Notes under the pieces: model-generated
Seen by the model: the letters and a program-made list of their open reading frames with translations, nothing else
The model's database searches: none
What the model was told of the DNA's origin: nothing
Program-made: the position numbers and the translations under genes
IMG/VR virus record: IMGVR_UViG_3300001598_000036
Coordinates: 1-64,000 of that record
Source: a virus
Taxonomy: Duplodnaviria > Caudoviricetes
Reading direction: 5' to 3' (one strand)
Length of the DNA: 64,000 bases
Shown: one piece after another, positions 1 to 6,058 of the stretch
Numbering within the stretch: the stretch's first letter is position 1
Layout of the letters: every line of letters begins with the position of its first letter

Positions 1-170
1 ATATGGAAAAAATTCCCAGCTTTTCCAGCTCCTTCCAAATTTGGTAAAATTTTCCAGAGTTTCCAGCTCCTGCCAGAAATGGAAAAAATTTCCAGCTCTC
101 CCAAAACTTTCCAAAACTGGAAAAAATTTCCAGTACTGTCAGAAATTTCCATATATGGAAAAAATTTCCA
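1..170. repeat. 38-bp-period tandem repeat built on the palindrome TTTCCA-N4-TGGAAA
   Basis: Palindrome variants start at 32, 70, 108 and 146 (exact 38-bp period). A fifth right half-site is at 5-9, so the array continues past the window edge. Confidence 0.8.
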
Positions 171-395
171 ATCCATCGTATATCGGCGATAGGCGATGCC
201 GCCGGGCCGACAACTTTAACGCATTAGAACTTTAACGCACTAAAGCGCCCGCGCCGGCGCGACAACTTTAATACTTTAATGTAGTAAAGTGAAACGCCCG
301 GCCACTATACTTTAGTACTTTACTAGACTAAAGCGAAGGATCCGGCTCGCGTACTTTAGTACTTTAACGCACTAAAGTCTATAGACCGGCGCCCG

Positions 396-409
396 CGAAC
401 ATATGTTCG
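396..409. promoter_or_regulatory. LexA (SOS/Cheo) box
   Basis: CGAACATATGTTCG matches the Firmicutes consensus CGAACRNRYGTTCG. Confidence 0.75.
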
Positions 410-457
410 CCTGACCAAATAAAAAAGAGAACAAACTTTCGTTTGTTCTCCGTTGGA

Positions 458-685
458 CTACTTGGTAAATTCTACCACTTTGAGTCCATCTTTGAAGAAG
501 TAGGCAACTGTTCTTGCCTTCTCAATGTCATCAAGTGTGATAACTTCGCCTGTTGTACTGTCCATTACAGTATCAACTCCTGCGGAATGCATTTTCAGTA
601 CAAGCACTGTCAAGTCTGTATAGACTTCGTGCGTTGCGTCTGAATTAGTGATAACTCTTGAAGCGTTAATTTTTTCTACTCTCAT
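458..685 (-). CDS. hypothetical early protein
   Basis: ORF with AGAGAGG RBS and a downstream terminator hairpin (425-450). Confidence 0.75.
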   Translation of the reverse strand: MRVEKINASRVITNSDATHEVYTDLTVLVLKMHSAGVDTVMDSTTGEVITLDDIEKARTVAYFFKDGLKVVEFTK

Positions 686-739
686 ATTATTACCTCTCTT
701 TCTTTTATCTGTATATATAGTATCATATTGCGAGTACCA

Positions 740-1090
740 TTAAAGGTACTCAGCAAATGAAACTGTATATTCTTTTCTAACTTTGAAAGTGAATTCTTTT
801 GGAAGTTCATCACATAAGAATCTGTCATTTCTAACATACTTTCCTATGTTCATTTCTTTCAACATTTCTCTTACTTCATCTTCAATTCTTAATGTTGTGT
901 ACTTTGAAAGTGGAATTGCGAACACATAATTAAATTTTGTTGTACCTATTGGATAATTTGGTGTGTTCAAATATTTTTTATTATGTTCCTTTTTTCTTCT
1001 TTCTAAATTGTTTGTTGTTCCAATTTTTACTACGAATCTTCCCAAACATTCACGATACCAACCTACATAGAAATATTCTTTTGCTTTCAT
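740..1090 (-). CDS. GIY-YIG/T5orf172-like protein
   Basis: YFYVG...VKIGTTNNLERRKKEHN...E motif pattern. Confidence 0.55.
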   Translation of the reverse strand: MKAKEYFYVGWYRECLGRFVVKIGTTNNLERRKKEHNKKYLNTPNYPIGTTKFNYVFAIPLSKYTTLRIEDEVREMLKEMNIGKYVRNDRFLCDELPKEFTFKVRKEYTVSFAEYL

Positions 1091-1128
1091 TTTTCTGTCC
1101 TTTCTTTCTTTAACTTAACTTATAACTA

Positions 1129-1158
1129 ATTATACACCCAACGGAATATCTCTGTCAA
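1129..1158 (-). promoter_or_regulatory. sigma70/sigmaA-type early promoter
   Basis: TTGACA-18-TATAAT on the minus strand. Confidence 0.8.
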
Positions 1159-1318
1159 TATTTTTTTTGAAAAAAACATAAGAAAAACAATTCTTTAATG
1201 CTTTAACGCAATAAAGCGCGCCACCGGACGATCCACTTTCGTACTTTAATGCATTGAAGTGCGACCGCCGGCCCGCGCACTTTAACGCAGTAAAGCGTTG
1301 AAGCGACAAGGGCGGCCG

Positions 1319-1332
1319 CGAACATATGTTCG
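1319..1332. promoter_or_regulatory. LexA (SOS/Cheo) box
   Basis: CGAACATATGTTCG, perfect consensus. Confidence 0.75.
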
Positions 1333-1373
1333 ACCAAGAAGAGCGAGGAGAACAATCGTTCTCCTCTGTATAT

Positions 1374-1730
1374 TTATTCATTCTTATGAATATTTTTTTC
1401 TTTCTCTCTCCTTTCTTTATCTTTGGCAATTTTTGCCATTTTTTTCTCTTTGGCAATTTTTGCCTTTTCTTCTTTTTCTTTACACTTCATAGAATATTCT
1501 TCTGCAAGTGCATAAGCATCATAAGGCTCTGTACCTTTGTTACTTCCTGTTGGAATGGAAATCTTTACCACTACGAAATCTTCGTTTCCCTCTCTGTCAA
1601 GAATTGGAAATGCAATTTCGTTTGACTTAACACGAAGAACATCATCTTCAGTGTTGGAAAGAAATTCCATAAACTTGGAAACATATTCCATTTTAACTTC
1701 TTCTCTTAATGCTTTTCTTGATACTGTCAT
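1374..1730 (-). CDS. hypothetical early protein with Lys/Glu-rich C-terminus
   Basis: ORF with RBS, an upstream TTGATT-17-TACAAT promoter and a downstream hairpin. Confidence 0.75.
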   Translation of the reverse strand: MTVSRKALREEVKMEYVSKFMEFLSNTEDDVLRVKSNEIAFPILDREGNEDFVVVKISIPTGSNKGTEPYDAYALAEEYSMKCKEKEEKAKIAKEKKMAKIAKDKERREKEKNIHKNE

Positions 1731-1816
1731 AATTTGTACCTTTTTTAACCTTTCTTTTTTTCTTTATTGTAGCATATATTTATTAACTAATCAAGCATTA
1801 GTTTGCTTTCTTTTGA

Positions 1817-1927
1817 TTACTTTTTTGCTAAAGTTTCCTGCGACTTTAACCATAACAATGACTTGAAAAACTGTTTATTATTGGTAGTATATATCTTTCC
1901 TTTGTACTCAATTACGAACATAATCAT
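1817..1927 (-). CDS. small hypothetical protein (36 aa)
   Basis: MIMFVIEYKGK...LAKK* with the same AGAGAGGTA RBS as neighbouring genes. Confidence 0.55.
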   Translation of the reverse strand: MIMFVIEYKGKIYTTNNKQFFKSLLWLKSQETLAKK

Positions 1928-2133
1928 TACCTCTCTTTCCTTTTCTGTACCTATATAATAACAAGTCTACTGTCCTATTAAACGGACTCTGCGGCGACCA
2001 TCAAAAATTTTTTGAAACTTTAACGCTTTAACGTACTAAAGCGCGGCCGACGCATAAACTTTAACGCTTTAGTGTGTTGAAGCGGAACGACCGGCCGCGC
2101 CACTTTAGTACGTTAAAGCGTGAAAGTGTAAAA

Positions 2134-2149
2134 TGTTTCACGTGAAACA
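2134..2149. promoter_or_regulatory. parS site (ParB/Spo0J binding)
   Basis: TGTTTCACGTGAAACA, the perfect 16-bp parS consensus. Confidence 0.8.
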
Positions 2150-2203
2150 TTAACGAACGACTACCAATTTTTGGTAGTCGTTCTATAAGAAAGAAAGAAA
2201 AGG

Positions 2204-2713
2204 TTAATTTCCATTTTTTTCCTTTGATTCTATTGCATAATACTTGATGGAAAAATTATCCAAAATTGAAGTTATCATTTCTGATTCTTTCTTATCGTTG
2301 GAAAATATTTGAAGTGTGTATAATTCATTTTCTACAACAACATTATATACTAACTTTACATTTGCATTTTTAAGAAGTGCAACAACATTTTCCATTTTTT
2401 TACTATTTACTTTTGCAGTAGCATTATATATCCATAATCTATCTTTTTGCATTTTTTCCTCAATAAACTTAATTGAGAAAACACCAACGAAGTTGACAAA
2501 TGCTACTGCAAAACATTTGGTAATAAGTGGTAAATCGCAAGTTGCTGTCAATACAATGATTACTGTATAAAAGCCAAAACAAATTGCATTTGTTATACTT
2601 GCTAACCATTTGCCACCTTTAATAGTAACTAATGATTTAACAGTATTTAACAGTACATTTACGAAATTAACTCCCATAAAAATCCAAAACATTGAAGTGG
2701 TAAAAATTGTCAT
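2204..2713 (-). CDS. membrane protein, DUF5698/UPF0316-like
   Basis: Three hydrophobic N-terminal segments followed by a soluble C-terminal domain. Confidence 0.55.
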   Translation of the reverse strand: MTIFTTSMFWIFMGVNFVNVLLNTVKSLVTIKGGKWLASITNAICFGFYTVIIVLTATCDLPLITKCFAVAFVNFVGVFSIKFIEEKMQKDRLWIYNATAKVNSKKMENVVALLKNANVKLVYNVVVENELYTLQIFSNDKKESEMITSILDNFSIKYYAIESKEKNGN

Positions 2714-3001
2714 AAGTCTTAATCCTCTCTTTCTTATTTTCTATATATAGTATAAACTATATACTGTCCTATAAAACGGACTCAACAATTATTTTTTTCT
2801 TTTTCTTTCTTATCTCTGTATATAGAATACACTATTTTTAATAATAAGTCAAGTTCTTTTTTTCGTACAATCCTTTGACGCTTTAATTCGTTAAAGCGCG
2901 GCGGCCGGGCAGTACACTTTAACGCTTTAGCAGAATGAAGTATGCGGCCGGACCATTCACTTTAGTACTTTAACGTGTTGAAGCGGAAGGACCGGCGGCC
3001 G

Positions 3002-3015
3002 CGAACGTATGTTCG
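3002..3015. promoter_or_regulatory. LexA (SOS/Cheo) box
   Basis: CGAACGTATGTTCG matches the consensus. Confidence 0.75.
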
Positions 3016-3023
3016 TCTACGAA

Positions 3024-3039
3024 TGTTTCACGTGAAACA
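3024..3039. promoter_or_regulatory. parS site
   Basis: TGTTTCACGTGAAACA, perfect consensus. Confidence 0.8.
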
Positions 3040-3055
3040 TTTTCGTTGTGACACT

Positions 3056-3694
3056 TTACCAAAGTAAAGTGTCACAATTTCCATTTTCTGCCAAGCAAGA
3101 AAGTAAAATCTGATACTCAATCTCGCAATCTTCTAAAGCAGTATGACTTTCTATAAAATCATTGTTAAAAAGATAACGATATACTATTTCGGCAGTATGT
3201 CTACATTTACCATATTTTGTAAGATAGTCATTATCTATACAAAACTGTTTGTAGTCATCATTACTCTTAAAAGTATCTCTTGCAAGTTTTAATATATCGT
3301 GGAACTGTGTTCCATACTTAAAGAAATATCTATATTTTGAATCTGTGATATATCTCTGTGTAGTACCTAAAGCAAAAGCATCAAATCTACAATTAAAAGC
3401 AAATACTTTTGTTATATTATACTGTTCCATAACATCACGAAGAATAAATTTGATAGTATTAAAACTTCTTAACTTTCTACTACCATTTTTTATATCTTCC
3501 CAATACATAGGAATCTTTTCGGCAAAATAAGCATTTGCCATCATATCTTCCCAAAGAAAAATATCCTTTACTGTAAATGAATCTTTGTGGAAAATGTTTC
3601 CATTAAAATCTGCTACAAGATAACCTATATCATATACAAGTGCATCATCTAAAGTGTTTGTTGTTTCTGTGTCAATTACTAAAATCTTTTCCAT
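3056..3694 (-). CDS. DEDDh 3'-5' exonuclease
   Basis: ExoI VIDTETT, ExoII FNCRFD, ExoIII HTALEDC. Confidence 0.85.
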   Translation of the reverse strand: MEKILVIDTETTNTLDDALVYDIGYLVADFNGNIFHKDSFTVKDIFLWEDMMANAYFAEKIPMYWEDIKNGSRKLRSFNTIKFILRDVMEQYNITKVFAFNCRFDAFALGTTQRYITDSKYRYFFKYGTQFHDILKLARDTFKSNDDYKQFCIDNDYLTKYGKCRHTAEIVYRYLFNNDFIESHTALEDCEIEYQILLSCLAENGNCDTLLW

Positions 3695-3738
3695 AATTTT
3701 CCTACTTTCTTTTTTTAACTTTCTTTAACTTATAATTA

Positions 3739-3768
3739 ATTATACACCTAAATCATATTTATTGTCAA
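3739..3768 (-). promoter_or_regulatory. sigma70-type early promoter
   Basis: TTGACA-18-TATAAT. Confidence 0.8.
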
Positions 3769-3972
3769 GCATTATTTTATAAATAATTATGTTTTTTTAC
3801 AAATACAATCCTTTCTTACTTTAACGTAGTGAAGCGGCTGCACCGGACGTAAGACTTTAACACTTTAATGTAGTAAAGCGCCCAGTCCGGCGGCGCCACT
3901 TTAGCCAATTAAAGTGTTAAAGCGTGAAAGCAAAAGAAAAGAGATGGAAGATACTTCCATCTCTCTATGCAA

Positions 3973-4317
3973 CTACTGTGCCAACTTGTAAGCCTTGAGT
4001 GTACCCTTTGACTTAACCTTGACATCAGCGACAGTCAAGATTCCATTATCTACCAACTGTCTACAAAGTGCAGTACACTTCTGTGTTGAAATCTCAACAC
4101 TTTCGGCAATAGCCTTGCAAAGAGTCAAGTCTTTGCCTTCAAGGAACTTTACAATATTTTCCTTGATTGGCTCATTCTCAAGAGCCTTCTTTGAGATTGA
4201 ATTCTTTCTTCTCTCGTTACGAGCATTCAACTTTTCAATCTCGTGCTTGGCAAATTCTACCATTTCTTCGTTTTCAACATTTGCGATAACCATTTCCATA
4301 AATTCTCTGTTAGTCAT
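3973..4317 (-). CDS. winged helix-turn-helix DNA-binding protein
   Basis: Start at MTNREF after an AAGGTA RBS. C-terminal IAESVEISTQKCTALCRQLVDNGIL fits a wHTH pattern. Confidence 0.6.
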   Translation of the reverse strand: MTNREFMEMVIANVENEEMVEFAKHEIEKLNARNERRKNSISKKALENEPIKENIVKFLEGKDLTLCKAIAESVEISTQKCTALCRQLVDNGILTVADVKVKSKGTLKAYKLAQ

Positions 4318-4371
4318 TTTAATTACCTTTCTTTGAGTCTTACTCAACTAACCTTGTTTAACTTATAATTT

Positions 4372-4400
4372 ATTATAGCATTTAATCTCTAATCTGTCAA
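4372..4400 (-). promoter_or_regulatory. sigma70-type early promoter
   Basis: TTGACA-17-TATAAT with TGn extended -10. Confidence 0.85.
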
Positions 4401-4422
4401 CCCCCTTTTAAACTTTTTTTAA

Positions 4423-4515
4423 TTATTTTTCAAATAACCAATAGCCACAAAGAATAGCAATTCCAAGATATGCCAATATTGACGCTGTTCTAATAATGAT
4501 TGTAAGTACTAACAT
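4423..4515 (-). CDS. small membrane peptide (30 aa)
   Basis: MLVLTIIIRTASILAYLGIAILCGYWLFEK, with an AAGGAG RBS and its own TTGACA-17-TAATAT promoter (4549-4577). Confidence 0.55.
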   Translation of the reverse strand: MLVLTIIIRTASILAYLGIAILCGYWLFEK

Positions 4516-4739
4516 TTGATTTTCTCCTTTCTGTCTTTCTGTAATTATATATTAACACAACTGAAACCCTATGTCAACAACTATTTGAATAAAAACATAA
4601 GAAATACAATCCTTTCGCACTTTAGCACGCTAAAGCGCGGGCGCCGGATCGTCTACTTCACTACACTAAAGCGTTGAAGCGGCGCGGCCGGCGCCAAGAC
4701 TTTAACACAGTAAAGCACTAAAGTCTAACCACCGGCCGC

Positions 4740-4770
4740 CCACTACATATAGTGGTACTATATGTAGTGG
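4740..4770. promoter_or_regulatory. two adjacent NrdR-box-like sites
   Basis: CCACTACATATAGTGG and GTACTATATGTAGTGG fit acaCwAtATaTwGtg. Together they form an inverted repeat without a U-tract. Confidence 0.5.
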
Positions 4771-4776
4771 TTAGTC

Positions 4777-5223
4777 TTATGCGTTAAGCACTCTCAATAT
4801 CTCAATGATGTTATCAACATCGTATGCAGTACCTAACCAATTATCTCTATTTGGCTTTTCATCATCAAACAGAATTCCGTTTGGCTCATTGACAACACTT
4901 GCCTTTGGTGTACCATACTCTACAATATGTATTTCATCAAACTGTACACTTGCAAGATGTCTGTTAAGCCAACCTCTCTTTGCGTTGGTTACTCTCATAC
5001 CATATTCATCTGTACCATTCTTTGCTAACCAACTAACAATTCCGATTGTATAACCTTTAGTTTGTAATCTGTTAAGAAGTCTTGCAAGGTTAGACATTCT
5101 AACCATTGTCTTTGCTTGTTCGTATGGTCTTGTATTCTCGTTGATGATATCATCAAGCCAAGTTTCAATTCCGTAAAGGTTTGCGATTGTTCCGTCCATA
5201 TCGAAGTAGATTGCTTTAGTCAT
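4777..5223 (-). CDS. HAD-superfamily phosphatase (5'(3')-nucleotidase-like)
   Basis: Motif I FDMDGT, motif II S, K and motif IV LFDD. Confidence 0.75.
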   Translation of the reverse strand: MTKAIYFDMDGTIANLYGIETWLDDIINENTRPYEQAKTMVRMSNLARLLNRLQTKGYTIGIVSWLAKNGTDEYGMRVTNAKRGWLNRHLASVQFDEIHIVEYGTPKASVVNEPNGILFDDEKPNRDNWLGTAYDVDNIIEILRVLNA

Positions 5224-5468
5224 TTTGAGTTACCTCTCTTTCTTTCTTTCTATAATGAGTATAGCACATAATAGAATTGATTGCAACCCTTTTTTGAATA
5301 AAAACATAAGAAATACAATCCTTCTCCACTTCACCGTAGTGAAGCGGCGCGACCGAACCAACCACTCTATCCCTTTAACATACTAAAGCATACGGCGCGA
5401 AGACTTTAATACTTTACTACATTAAAGCGTTGAAGCGGACATACGGCGCAAATGAAAAAGAATGTTAG

Positions 5469-5633
5469 TTAGACTAACATTCCTCTCTGTTCGCATTCTT
5501 CTTTAACTGCAACGAAGTAAGCATATTTATTCTTTTCGCCAATAAAGATTTCTTTTCCGAACTCATTATTATAAATGTTCTTTAACTGTTTAAGTGTCAT
5601 CTTCCATAATTTCTGTGTAGTGTAAGTCTTCAT
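5469..5633 (-). CDS. small hypothetical protein (54 aa)
   Basis: MKTYTTQKLWK...GMLV* with RBS and a TTGACA-17-TAATAT promoter (5667-5695). Confidence 0.65.
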   Translation of the reverse strand: MKTYTTQKLWKMTLKQLKNIYNNEFGKEIFIGEKNKYAYFVAVKEECEQRGMLV

Positions 5634-6058
5634 TATATATTACCTCTCTTTCCTTTCTGTAATTATATATTACCATAGACGGCGCGAAGTGTCAATATAT
5701 AATTAAAGAAAAACATAAGAAATACAATTCTTTTTTACTTTAACGCGTTGAAGCGGGCTATTATATAACACTATACCACATAGAAAAATCGCGTCCTATA
5801 ATATTATATTAGGCGCGTGAAAAATTTTTCCCTATATATAAATAAGAGCCACTTCATCTTGATGAAGCGGCTCGTCGTTGAAGCGGCGCCGAGGTCTGAG
5901 GTCGCGCCGAGGTCAGAGGTCCGGGGTTATTTCAGGAATTTGCTTTAACGCTTTAGCGCGTGAAATTGCCGCTGCAAACAACGGACCACGAACTAAATTT
6001 TTGAAATTAGTATTTAATTTTTTGACTTATATATAGAATATTTTTAGGAGGTACTATT

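Follow-up and report, generated by a model that had tools for sequence, protein, structure and literature searches.

Candidate binding sites for host HisR, LexA, and ParB separate the early genes of a large TGA-recoded phage and may couple them to host state

The virus record IMGVR_UViG_3300001598_000036 in IMG/VR holds a phage genome of 126,454 bp, complete according to CheckV, of which bases 1-64000 constitute the stretch analyzed here (the window). Bases 200-5970 are best explained as the early, host-takeover-type module of a TGA-recoded gut-Clostridia siphovirus. The spacers between its genes hold about 28 sites for the host DNA-binding proteins HisR, LexA, and ParB (23, 3, and 2, respectively), and a whole-genome scan placed all of them within this region. 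A first-pass annotation, made from the letters of the window, had described an array of CTTYA-N6-TRAAG palindromes in blocks of fixed layout and had proposed that it acts as a decoy for host repressors. Both the array and the layout were borne out, the latter when read on the minus (coding) strand down to the promoter. As to function, we tentatively favor another role, drawn by analogy with phage phi29, in which the arrays would tie the early module to the state of the host.

Genes of this module follow one another on the minus strand in cassettes of one gene each, and every cassette has a sigma-70 promoter close to consensus and an intrinsic terminator. Read on that strand, each block runs from a terminator through a slot that can hold a LexA box and/or a parS site, to a GC-rich linker region with three operators, an AT motif, and a promoter of the form TTGACA-17/18-TATAAT. 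The dyad CTTYA-N6-TRAAG occurs 26 times in the window, where 0.8 would be expected, and also 26 times in the whole genome; all but one of these copies fall in 230-5867. Two dyads, at 3054 and 5852, lie inside terminator-type hairpins, leaving 23 operators in eight blocks, all on the minus strand. The first block (B1, 205..409) carries four operators at an exact 44-bp spacing (230-245, 274-289, 318-333, and 362-377). Three operators each make up B2 (1201..1332; 1201-1216, 1244-1259, and 1280-1295), B3 (2026..2150; 2026-2041, 2067-2082, and 2103-2118), B4 (2881..3040; 2881-2896, 2925-2940, and 2968-2983), B5 (3819-3834, 3863-3878, and 3899-3914, with an empty slot), B6 (4620-4635, 4656-4671, and 4700-4715), and B7 (5329-5344, 5373-5388, and 5412-5427), while B8 has a single one (5738-5753). 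Spacing between operators within the phage blocks is 36 or 44 bp.

HisR, a TrpR-family protein called YerC in Bacillus subtilis, recognizes a 20-bp palindrome with the consensus cacTTTA-N6-TAAAgtg and binds DNA only with L-histidine (PMC9413887). There are about three such sites per bacterial genome, at the his operon, the histidine transporter, and hisR itself, which is autoregulated in about half of genomes (PMC9413887). The phage dyads meet the core of this consensus, with a flank before CTTTA that is mostly cg, not ca. Most phage operators also have a third half-site 8 bp off, located on the promoter side in 17 of the 23 and otherwise present as an extra half-site on the upstream side. Staggered tandem half-sites are the typical arrangement of TrpR-family operators. 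The TTTA-N6-TAAA core, the C/G flanks, and the 8-bp staggered tandem are all features of Firmicutes HisR (YerC) operators (PMC9413887). A weight matrix for HisR operators, built from 14 bacterial sites only and applied with a cutoff of at least 12 bits, gave 23 matches in 126 kb, every one of them in 1-6000, and none in shuffled genomes; the phage operators scored 12 to 28 bits. This matrix is partly circular, as its bacterial sites had been picked by exact pattern. The gene context of the sequence form in bacteria is independent of the matrix, however, and identifies the form as a HisR operator.

That context emerged when the full tandem form, CTTTA-N3-CTTTAAAG-N3-TAAAG, was sought in 185,579 species genomes. 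In genuine Clostridia contigs it was intergenic and stood directly upstream of hisZ (L269, L293, and L304) or of a 97-amino-acid Trp_repressor-family gene, hisR (L267; PF01371, E value of 9.5e-29). It also fronted PF04392 and SBP_bac_3 binding-protein (transporter) genes and solute symporter genes in Clostridia. The tandem operator of the phage has the same form as these his-regulon operators, including the 8-bp stagger. Placement and number differ: host operators, about three per genome (PMC9413887), sit on the −35/−10 regions of his, transporter, and hisR genes, whereas the 23 phage operators precede early genes unrelated to these and are spaced 36 or 44 bp apart by GC linkers that have a central CCGG. 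The operators found in bacterial contigs overlap −35/−10 elements, and those of the phage never do; nor does any phage site lie, as a repressing HisR operator would, on the promoter of a gene for making or importing histidine.

Judged from sequence comparison, the operator half-sites have been kept under selection; they are invariant, whereas the N6 centers and the linkers diverge, and the operators share one polarity, with the third half-site toward the promoter in 17 of 23. This bears on the reading that the blocks are nonfunctional repeats spread by duplication of promoter cassettes. Cassettes did duplicate, as the AT motif and the promoter are near-identical in four of them. The motif, GGATTGTATTTCTTATGTTTTT on the minus strand, is found in near-identical copies at 1172-1193, 4591-4612, 5300-5321, and 5709-5730, between the proximal operator and the −35, and may serve as an UP element or as one more binding site. 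Beyond the invariant half-sites, however, arrays are kept across relatives of 30 to 60% protein identity and in an unrelated phage family, and the LexA boxes and parS sites are perfect where chance would give 0.3 and 0.01, respectively. Mere duplication is thus a very improbable explanation.

The first-pass annotation had linked the sites to host proteins, and this was upheld: the sites agree with the consensus operators known for HisR, LexA, and ParB of the host, and none of these proteins is encoded by the phage. Pfam profile searches of its genome revealed no TrpR-family protein, LexA DNA-binding domain, or ParB_N, and no tyrosine integrase, ParA, or ParB was found in it. A TrpR-family gene was likewise missing from two complete relatives, G002 (138.6 kb) and G004 (167 kb), and from phi29-like contigs that share the operator. 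Two sets of candidates for a phage-encoded binder were rejected. Weak TrpR-like matches fell in the helix-turn-helix (HTH) domains of the GIY-YIG homing endonucleases by which the gyrase genes are interrupted, and conserved small open reading frames (ORFs) proved to be gyrase fragments split by homing endonucleases. These genes lie beyond the window at genome positions 84,000-88,400 (L243 and L005), where gyrase A and B are split into short conserved ORFs; the splitting elements are GIY-YIG homing endonucleases with C-terminal HTH domains, and the endonuclease contains an in-frame TGA. The Acutalibacteraceae metagenome-assembled genomes (MAGs) into which array-bearing relatives have been binned do encode HisR (loci L353 and L354), and this binning is weak evidence for Acutalibacteraceae as host.

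The same operator was present in a second, unrelated phage family. These phi29-like contigs are 15 to 19 kb long with 50% GC and encode a protein-primed polymerase, a Gp16 ATPase, a connector, and a phi29-type capsid protein. In L145, L171, L148/L155, L157, and others, a tandem HisR-type operator occupies bases 12-35 from the physical end, which is marked by adapter remnants directly abutting AAAGTTAAAAT. One or two further dyads precede the first promoter, and the arrangement is seen at both ends where both are present. Each end therefore has about two to three operators, next to the replication origin and the first promoter, a position that looks regulatory. No protein common to the phi29-like and the large phages was detected by tblastn at an E value of 1e-3. 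Because two unrelated phage families have the same host-identical operator and no shared protein, a host binder is likely.

Three perfect LexA boxes, CGAAC-N4-GTTCG, occupy slots at 396-409 (B1), 1319-1332 (B2), and 3002-3015 (B4). They had been called at these positions before, and they are the only ones in 126 kb, with 0.3 expected. Each lies 10 to 20 bp past a terminator, with the next −35 about 170 bp downstream (the box at 1319-1332, for instance, is followed by the −35 at 1158-1153), in keeping with the earlier estimate that slot sites are about 150 bp or more from the downstream −35; none is at or in a promoter where LexA would repress. Perfect parS sites, TGTTTCACGTGAAACA, likewise stand where they had been reported, at 2134-2149 in the slot of B3 (as an 18-bp palindrome, 2133-2150) and at 3024-3039 in that of B4, and nowhere else in 126 kb, where 0.01 would be expected. 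Both match the 16-bp palindrome TGTTNCACGTGAAACA and extend to the 18-bp palindrome ATGTTTCACGTGAAACAT. Among the loci examined, parS was found only in this phage; with no integrase, ParA, or ParB in the genome, only a host ParB could act at these sites.

A further claim, of two NrdR-like boxes at 4740, did not hold. NrdR boxes come in pairs ahead of nrd genes, each box being 16 bp long and similar to acaCwAtATaTwGtgt, with a spacing of about three helical turns. The sequence closest to that consensus here had 3 mismatches in 16 positions, and shuffled sequences yielded about three such matches per 64 kb. What had been read as boxes (4740-4770) are the two arms, separated by 16 bp, of a single hairpin, and they follow a nucleotidase gene rather than preceding an nrd gene. 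The hairpin (4740..4770) is perfect, with a 14-bp stem and a 3-nt loop directly past the stop codon of 4777-5223, and takes the terminator position of other blocks. Spo0A, DnaA, and CodY boxes showed no enrichment in the array, and Spo0A boxes were absent from the genome.

Arrays were not confined to this genome, as at least 27 IMG/VR loci have five or more dyads. The large phages G001, G002, and G004 hold 44, 24, and 30 dyads, respectively, each set within one early region of about 12 to 15 kb that adjoins the terminase/structural module. These three share about 70 ORFs with the phage of the window at 30 to 60% identity, and only two early genes are kept; the operators thus outlast the genes they flank. 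In G002, 21 of 24 dyads are at most 250 bp upstream of a promoter, and none is downstream of one. Perfect LexA boxes were found in nine viral loci, usually just past a terminator and beside a GC element, and those of the closer relatives L212, L215, L122, and L125 share the post-terminator position. A phage fragment of 27% GC (L146, IMGVR_UViG_3300031466_000006) differs in design, with 17 HisR-type dyads packed into about 700 bp (1063-1772) and an 18th at 2336. This cluster has no GC linkers and no genes between the dyads, stands beside a LexA-like box and other iterons, and looks like an origin, a centromere, or a sponge.

The large terminase has 45% identity with its counterpart in Geobacillus virus E3 and 37 to 43% identity with the terminases of other 120- to 166-kb Firmicutes phages and of phAss-1, a recoded phage of the human gut. 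Among cultured phages related by their terminase, Geobacillus E3, Enterococcus VRE9_4, Bacillus FADO, and Brevibacillus Sundance had background dyad counts only, and a BLAST comparison of bases 1-6000 with cultured phages returned only a 46-bp AT-rich match. Three good HisR-type sites are present near the ends of phAss-1, whose description makes no mention of promoters or repeats (PMC10607447). Two contigs that had been placed in bacterial MAGs, G011:C48 (176 kb, Acutalibacteraceae) and G013:C1 (139.6 kb, "Bacilli"), have 12 to 26 dyads and are in fact phage genomes. In G011, the terminase homologue contains eight in-frame TAG codons, so that its recoding differs from that of the present phage, in which TGA must be a sense codon in late genes and some replication genes.

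Some relatives fill the same position with other sequences. The exonuclease relative L006 has no HisR dyads and carries the dyad TTAAATCTAGATTTAA instead. The same cassette design, with other repeated dyads by GC linkers, was seen in L006:2180-10460 (TTAAATCTAGATTTAA), L113:480-600 (GTCTAAA/TTTAGAC), and L262:5600-5900 (TGTGAT/ATCAC). In L006, TGACACATTTTTGACACA also stands upstream of several promoters. Other AT-rich palindromes take the position of the AT motif in relatives, and in L212 and L191 this position has what we take to be a near-consensus CodY-like box.

Such exchanges of dyads would also fit binding of the sites by regulators that the phages themselves encode, an unrecognized early or virion protein acting on the dyads, for example in early shutoff, and the winged-helix protein encoded at 3973-4320 acting on the LexA-like boxes; the likeness to host operators would then be mimicry or coincidence. 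The winged-helix model is confident (mean pLDDT of 88), and the family, which is multicopy in closer relatives, co-occurs with LexA boxes: seven of the nine viral loci with perfect boxes encode it, often in two or three copies. A phage LexA-like activator has a precedent in GIL01 gp6, reported to be a LexA homologue (PMC6182141). Yet the co-occurrence is confounded by relatedness, the folds it resembles are of generic types (MarR/TFE/PadR/Z-alpha; the matches listed include no LexA), and a profile search gave no LexA_DNA_bind match. The protein is absent from the complete relative G002 and in G004 is represented by a weak match only (E value of 0.002) broken by three stop codons, though both genomes carry dyads. 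Given its generic fold and its lack of conservation across array-bearing phages, it was rejected as the general dyad binder. There is, in addition, no TrpR-family gene, no protein common to the two phage families that have the same operator, and an operator form identical to that of the host, and we regard binding by phage-encoded regulators as improbable. By analogy with gp6 and gp7 of GIL01, which act with LexA, the winged-helix protein is a candidate competitor or partner at the LexA boxes.

No HisR, LexA, or parS site in this phage overlaps a promoter core, so any effect on transcription must act from upstream. The operators lie 28 to 50 bp or more upstream of the −35 elements, and the nearest is 42 bp away in four cassettes. 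Under the coupling to host state that we tentatively favor, host HisR, LexA, and ParB would occupy the phage sites, and this occupancy would link the activity of the early region and the fate of the phage DNA to the condition of the cell. The states read in this way would be a sufficient supply of histidine, undamaged DNA, and the segregation of the chromosome or entrapment in a spore. All three proteins (HisR when charged with histidine, LexA, and ParB) bind DNA conditionally and so would together report on nutrients, genome integrity, and segregation. To act from upstream, HisR might, for example, bind cooperatively and form a nucleoprotein array from about −85 to −190. Sequestration of HisR would be an unavoidable side effect and could yield a genome-copy-number timer.

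Several observations weigh against such coupling. The distances, about −85 to −190 for the operators and about −200 for the slot sites of LexA and ParB, are too great for classical occlusion, and promoters so close to consensus should need no activator. Across relatives, the nearest dyad is 33 to 114 bp from the −35 with no conserved distance, which argues against a strict activator geometry, although this regular-expression measure missed many promoters and the result is weak. Block B1 is an orphan, with four operators and a LexA box and no promoter downstream, and the gene-free cluster in L146 looks more like a sponge, an origin, or a centromere. The other dyads that take the same position in L006, L113, and L262 also fit coevolving phage-encoded regulators.

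Some of these points favor the original proposal, that the arrays exist to sequester host HisR and, less so, LexA and ParB. His biosynthesis and uptake would be derepressed, the SOS response partly induced, and ParB loaded on phage DNA, while the spacers would merely be free noncoding DNA. The sites far outnumber the genomic targets of the factor, with 23 tandem operators (at least 46 dimer sites) per phage genome versus about three sites per host genome (PMC9413887). They are near consensus and, unlike host operators, none is on a promoter; the orphan B1 and the L146 cluster have no local target, dyad-to-promoter distances are loose, and the phage lacks HisR, LexA, and ParB. Against this, the phi29-like phages have only about two to three operators per end, too few for a sponge and placed at origins and first promoters, and titration needs neither uniform polarity nor one block per promoter. 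Autoregulation of hisR, whose operator stands upstream of the gene in L267, would buffer titration; the his pathway uses PRPP and ATP, making a benefit of derepression doubtful by reasoning; three LexA boxes are a weak sink compared with the dozens in a host; and no precedent was found in the literature searched. We therefore consider a decoy function possible but doubtful. In its fullest version, which we hold to be no likelier, the arrays would be a noncoding host-takeover device and a genome-copy-number clock for the early module that needs no phage protein. At least 46 HisR dimer sites would be present at entry and thousands upon replication, and HisR, with some LexA, would be stripped off the host chromosome, derepressing histidine supply and SOS functions. 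Such a device would have arisen in at least two unrelated phage families.

In 12 of 15 linkers between operators (205-5440), CCGG stands exactly 8 nt past the last half-site and 8 nt ahead of the next, and the CCGG-N8-CTTYA rule also applies at the upstream edges of B1, B4, and B6. Elsewhere in the genome, CCGG is neither avoided nor enriched. The fixed CCGG was partly seen in L122, L197, and L212 and was not seen in L146 or the phi29-like phages. A C5 methyltransferase that might account for it was not found in the phage; the motif may mark a second binding site, be a target of modification, or provide a flexible step. If any tight binder past each terminator, together with the GC linkers, halted read-through and the spread of supercoils from one highly transcribed cassette to the next, the blocks would be insulators or roadblocks and the identity of the host protein would be irrelevant. 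The constant order of terminator, protein sites with GC element, and promoter fits this, as do the exchange of HisR, LexA, and other sites among relatives, the loose promoter distances, and the fixed place of CCGG in the linker. The ends of phi29-like genomes, however, have no upstream transcription to block, L146 has neither GC linkers nor cassettes, and binders that are histidine dependent or SOS cleavable would be an odd choice. We consider an insulating role unlikely.

The array also contains GAAGCGG nine times on the plus strand and never on the minus strand (2079-5880), with five copies on each strand in the remaining 120 kb. In the array, it arises because the CCG+CTTCA variant of the operator yields it. 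The heptamer is presumably the Staphylococcus aureus-type Chi sequence (with an AGCGG core in B. subtilis), and a link to AddAB is conceivable. A 22-nt motif with inverted GTCC/GGAC arms, TACTGTCCTATWAAACGGACTC, is present twice, at 1968-1989 and 2762-2783, in the promoter zones of genes 1817-1927 and 2204-2713, and may be an operator recognized by some other factor.

All ten ORFs in 458-5633 run on the minus strand and are open in the standard code. Genes of 75 amino acids (458-685, no family) and 116 amino acids (740-1090, T5orf172/GIY-YIG-like) form an operon with an intrinsic terminator at 426..451; a promoter, TTGACA-18-TATAAT, lies at 1158-1129. Three genes of no family follow, encoding 118 (1374-1730, terminator at 1345..1366), 36 (1817-1927), and 169 (2204-2713, terminator at 2155..2183) amino acids. 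A DnaQ-like exonuclease of 212 amino acids (3056..3694, phrog_20187) is kept in relatives; its 3′ end is overlapped by a hairpin at 3045-3078, and its promoter, TTGACA-18-TATAAT, is at 3739..3768. The winged-helix DNA-binding protein (3973..4320, 115 amino acids, terminator at 3938..3966) has its own promoter at 4400-4372, without an operator block, and a 30-amino-acid ORF (4423-4515) has a promoter at 4577-4549. Also kept in relatives is a HAD-type 5′-deoxyribonucleotidase-like protein of 148 amino acids (4777..5223, phrog_2643); a promoter, TTGCAA-17-TATACT, is at 5286-5258. The last gene (5469..5633) encodes 54 amino acids of no family, and a further promoter is at 5695-5667. All of these promoters and terminators are on the minus strand. 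In the divergent region between early and late genes, a perfect tandem direct repeat of 18 bp, GCGCCGAGGTCWGAGGTC, occurs in two copies at 5886-5921, beside a hairpin at 5846-5873.

At the left end, bases 1..190 form a terminal iteron region (strand undefined) of TTCCAG and TGGAAA-N3-TTTCCA repeats, a candidate ori/pac region. The same iterons resume at the other contig end (126,150-126,454), where three copies of TTTGACACG and an outward-facing consensus promoter are also present. Because assembly was probably interrupted among the many repeats of such an ori/pac region, block B1 may adjoin an origin.

The host-takeover and pre-early modules of SPO1 and T5 are likewise clusters, at a genome end, of small cassettes that each hold one gene with a strong promoter of host type and a terminator, and the early genes here resemble those of T5 in including a 5′-deoxyribonucleotidase-like gene and T5orf172. 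To our knowledge, the SPO1 and T5 modules lack arrays of host-repressor operators; the early promoters of SPO1 are bound by a phage protein, TF1. Many high-affinity sites for one DNA-binding protein, whose number matters, are found in two other systems. Escherichia coli datA is chromosomal and titrates the cell's own initiator, DnaA, and the stoperators of mycobacteriophage L5 are recognized by the repressor that the phage itself encodes and are found, in a single orientation, inside transcription units.

Closer in kind is the virulent Bacillus phage phi29, which carries five parS sites and six Spo0A boxes for host proteins, the former used by host Spo0J for spore entrapment (PMC2731898). Like the present phage, it is nonintegrating and has consensus sites for host factors near early promoters and genome ends, with parS served by host ParB, and in phi29 the sites couple the lytic program and DNA segregation to host state (PMC2731898). 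The present arrays, for which a similar role is proposed, differ in that the main factor would be the metabolic repressor HisR rather than Spo0A, 23 tandem operators stand in place of six boxes, LexA boxes are added, and no site overlaps a promoter core. GIL01 is likewise a Firmicute phage without a LexA-type repressor of its own that relies on host LexA through consensus SOS boxes (PMC4551915). Its boxes are in promoter P1 and mediate direct repression helped by gp7, whereas those described here come just after terminators, with the next −35 about 170 bp further on, and this phage was not found to encode a homologue of gp7 or gp6. The statement of the first-pass annotation that no such array had been described was therefore too strong in general, as phi29 carries Spo0A boxes and parS, and seems to stand for HisR: host-factor sites on phages are a known kind, and the literature searched contained no description of phages with arrays of HisR operators.

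Here, the main factor is a repressor of amino acid metabolism, and its operators are about eightfold more numerous than those reported for a host genome. Large recoded gut-Clostridia siphoviruses and phi29-like phages have these operators in common, and because they imply a Firmicute host that bears HisR, they offer a clue to host range from the genome itself. If HisR does bind these arrays, either the early development of the phage would be wired to histidine sufficiency or the amino acid metabolism of the host would be reprogrammed by DNA alone.

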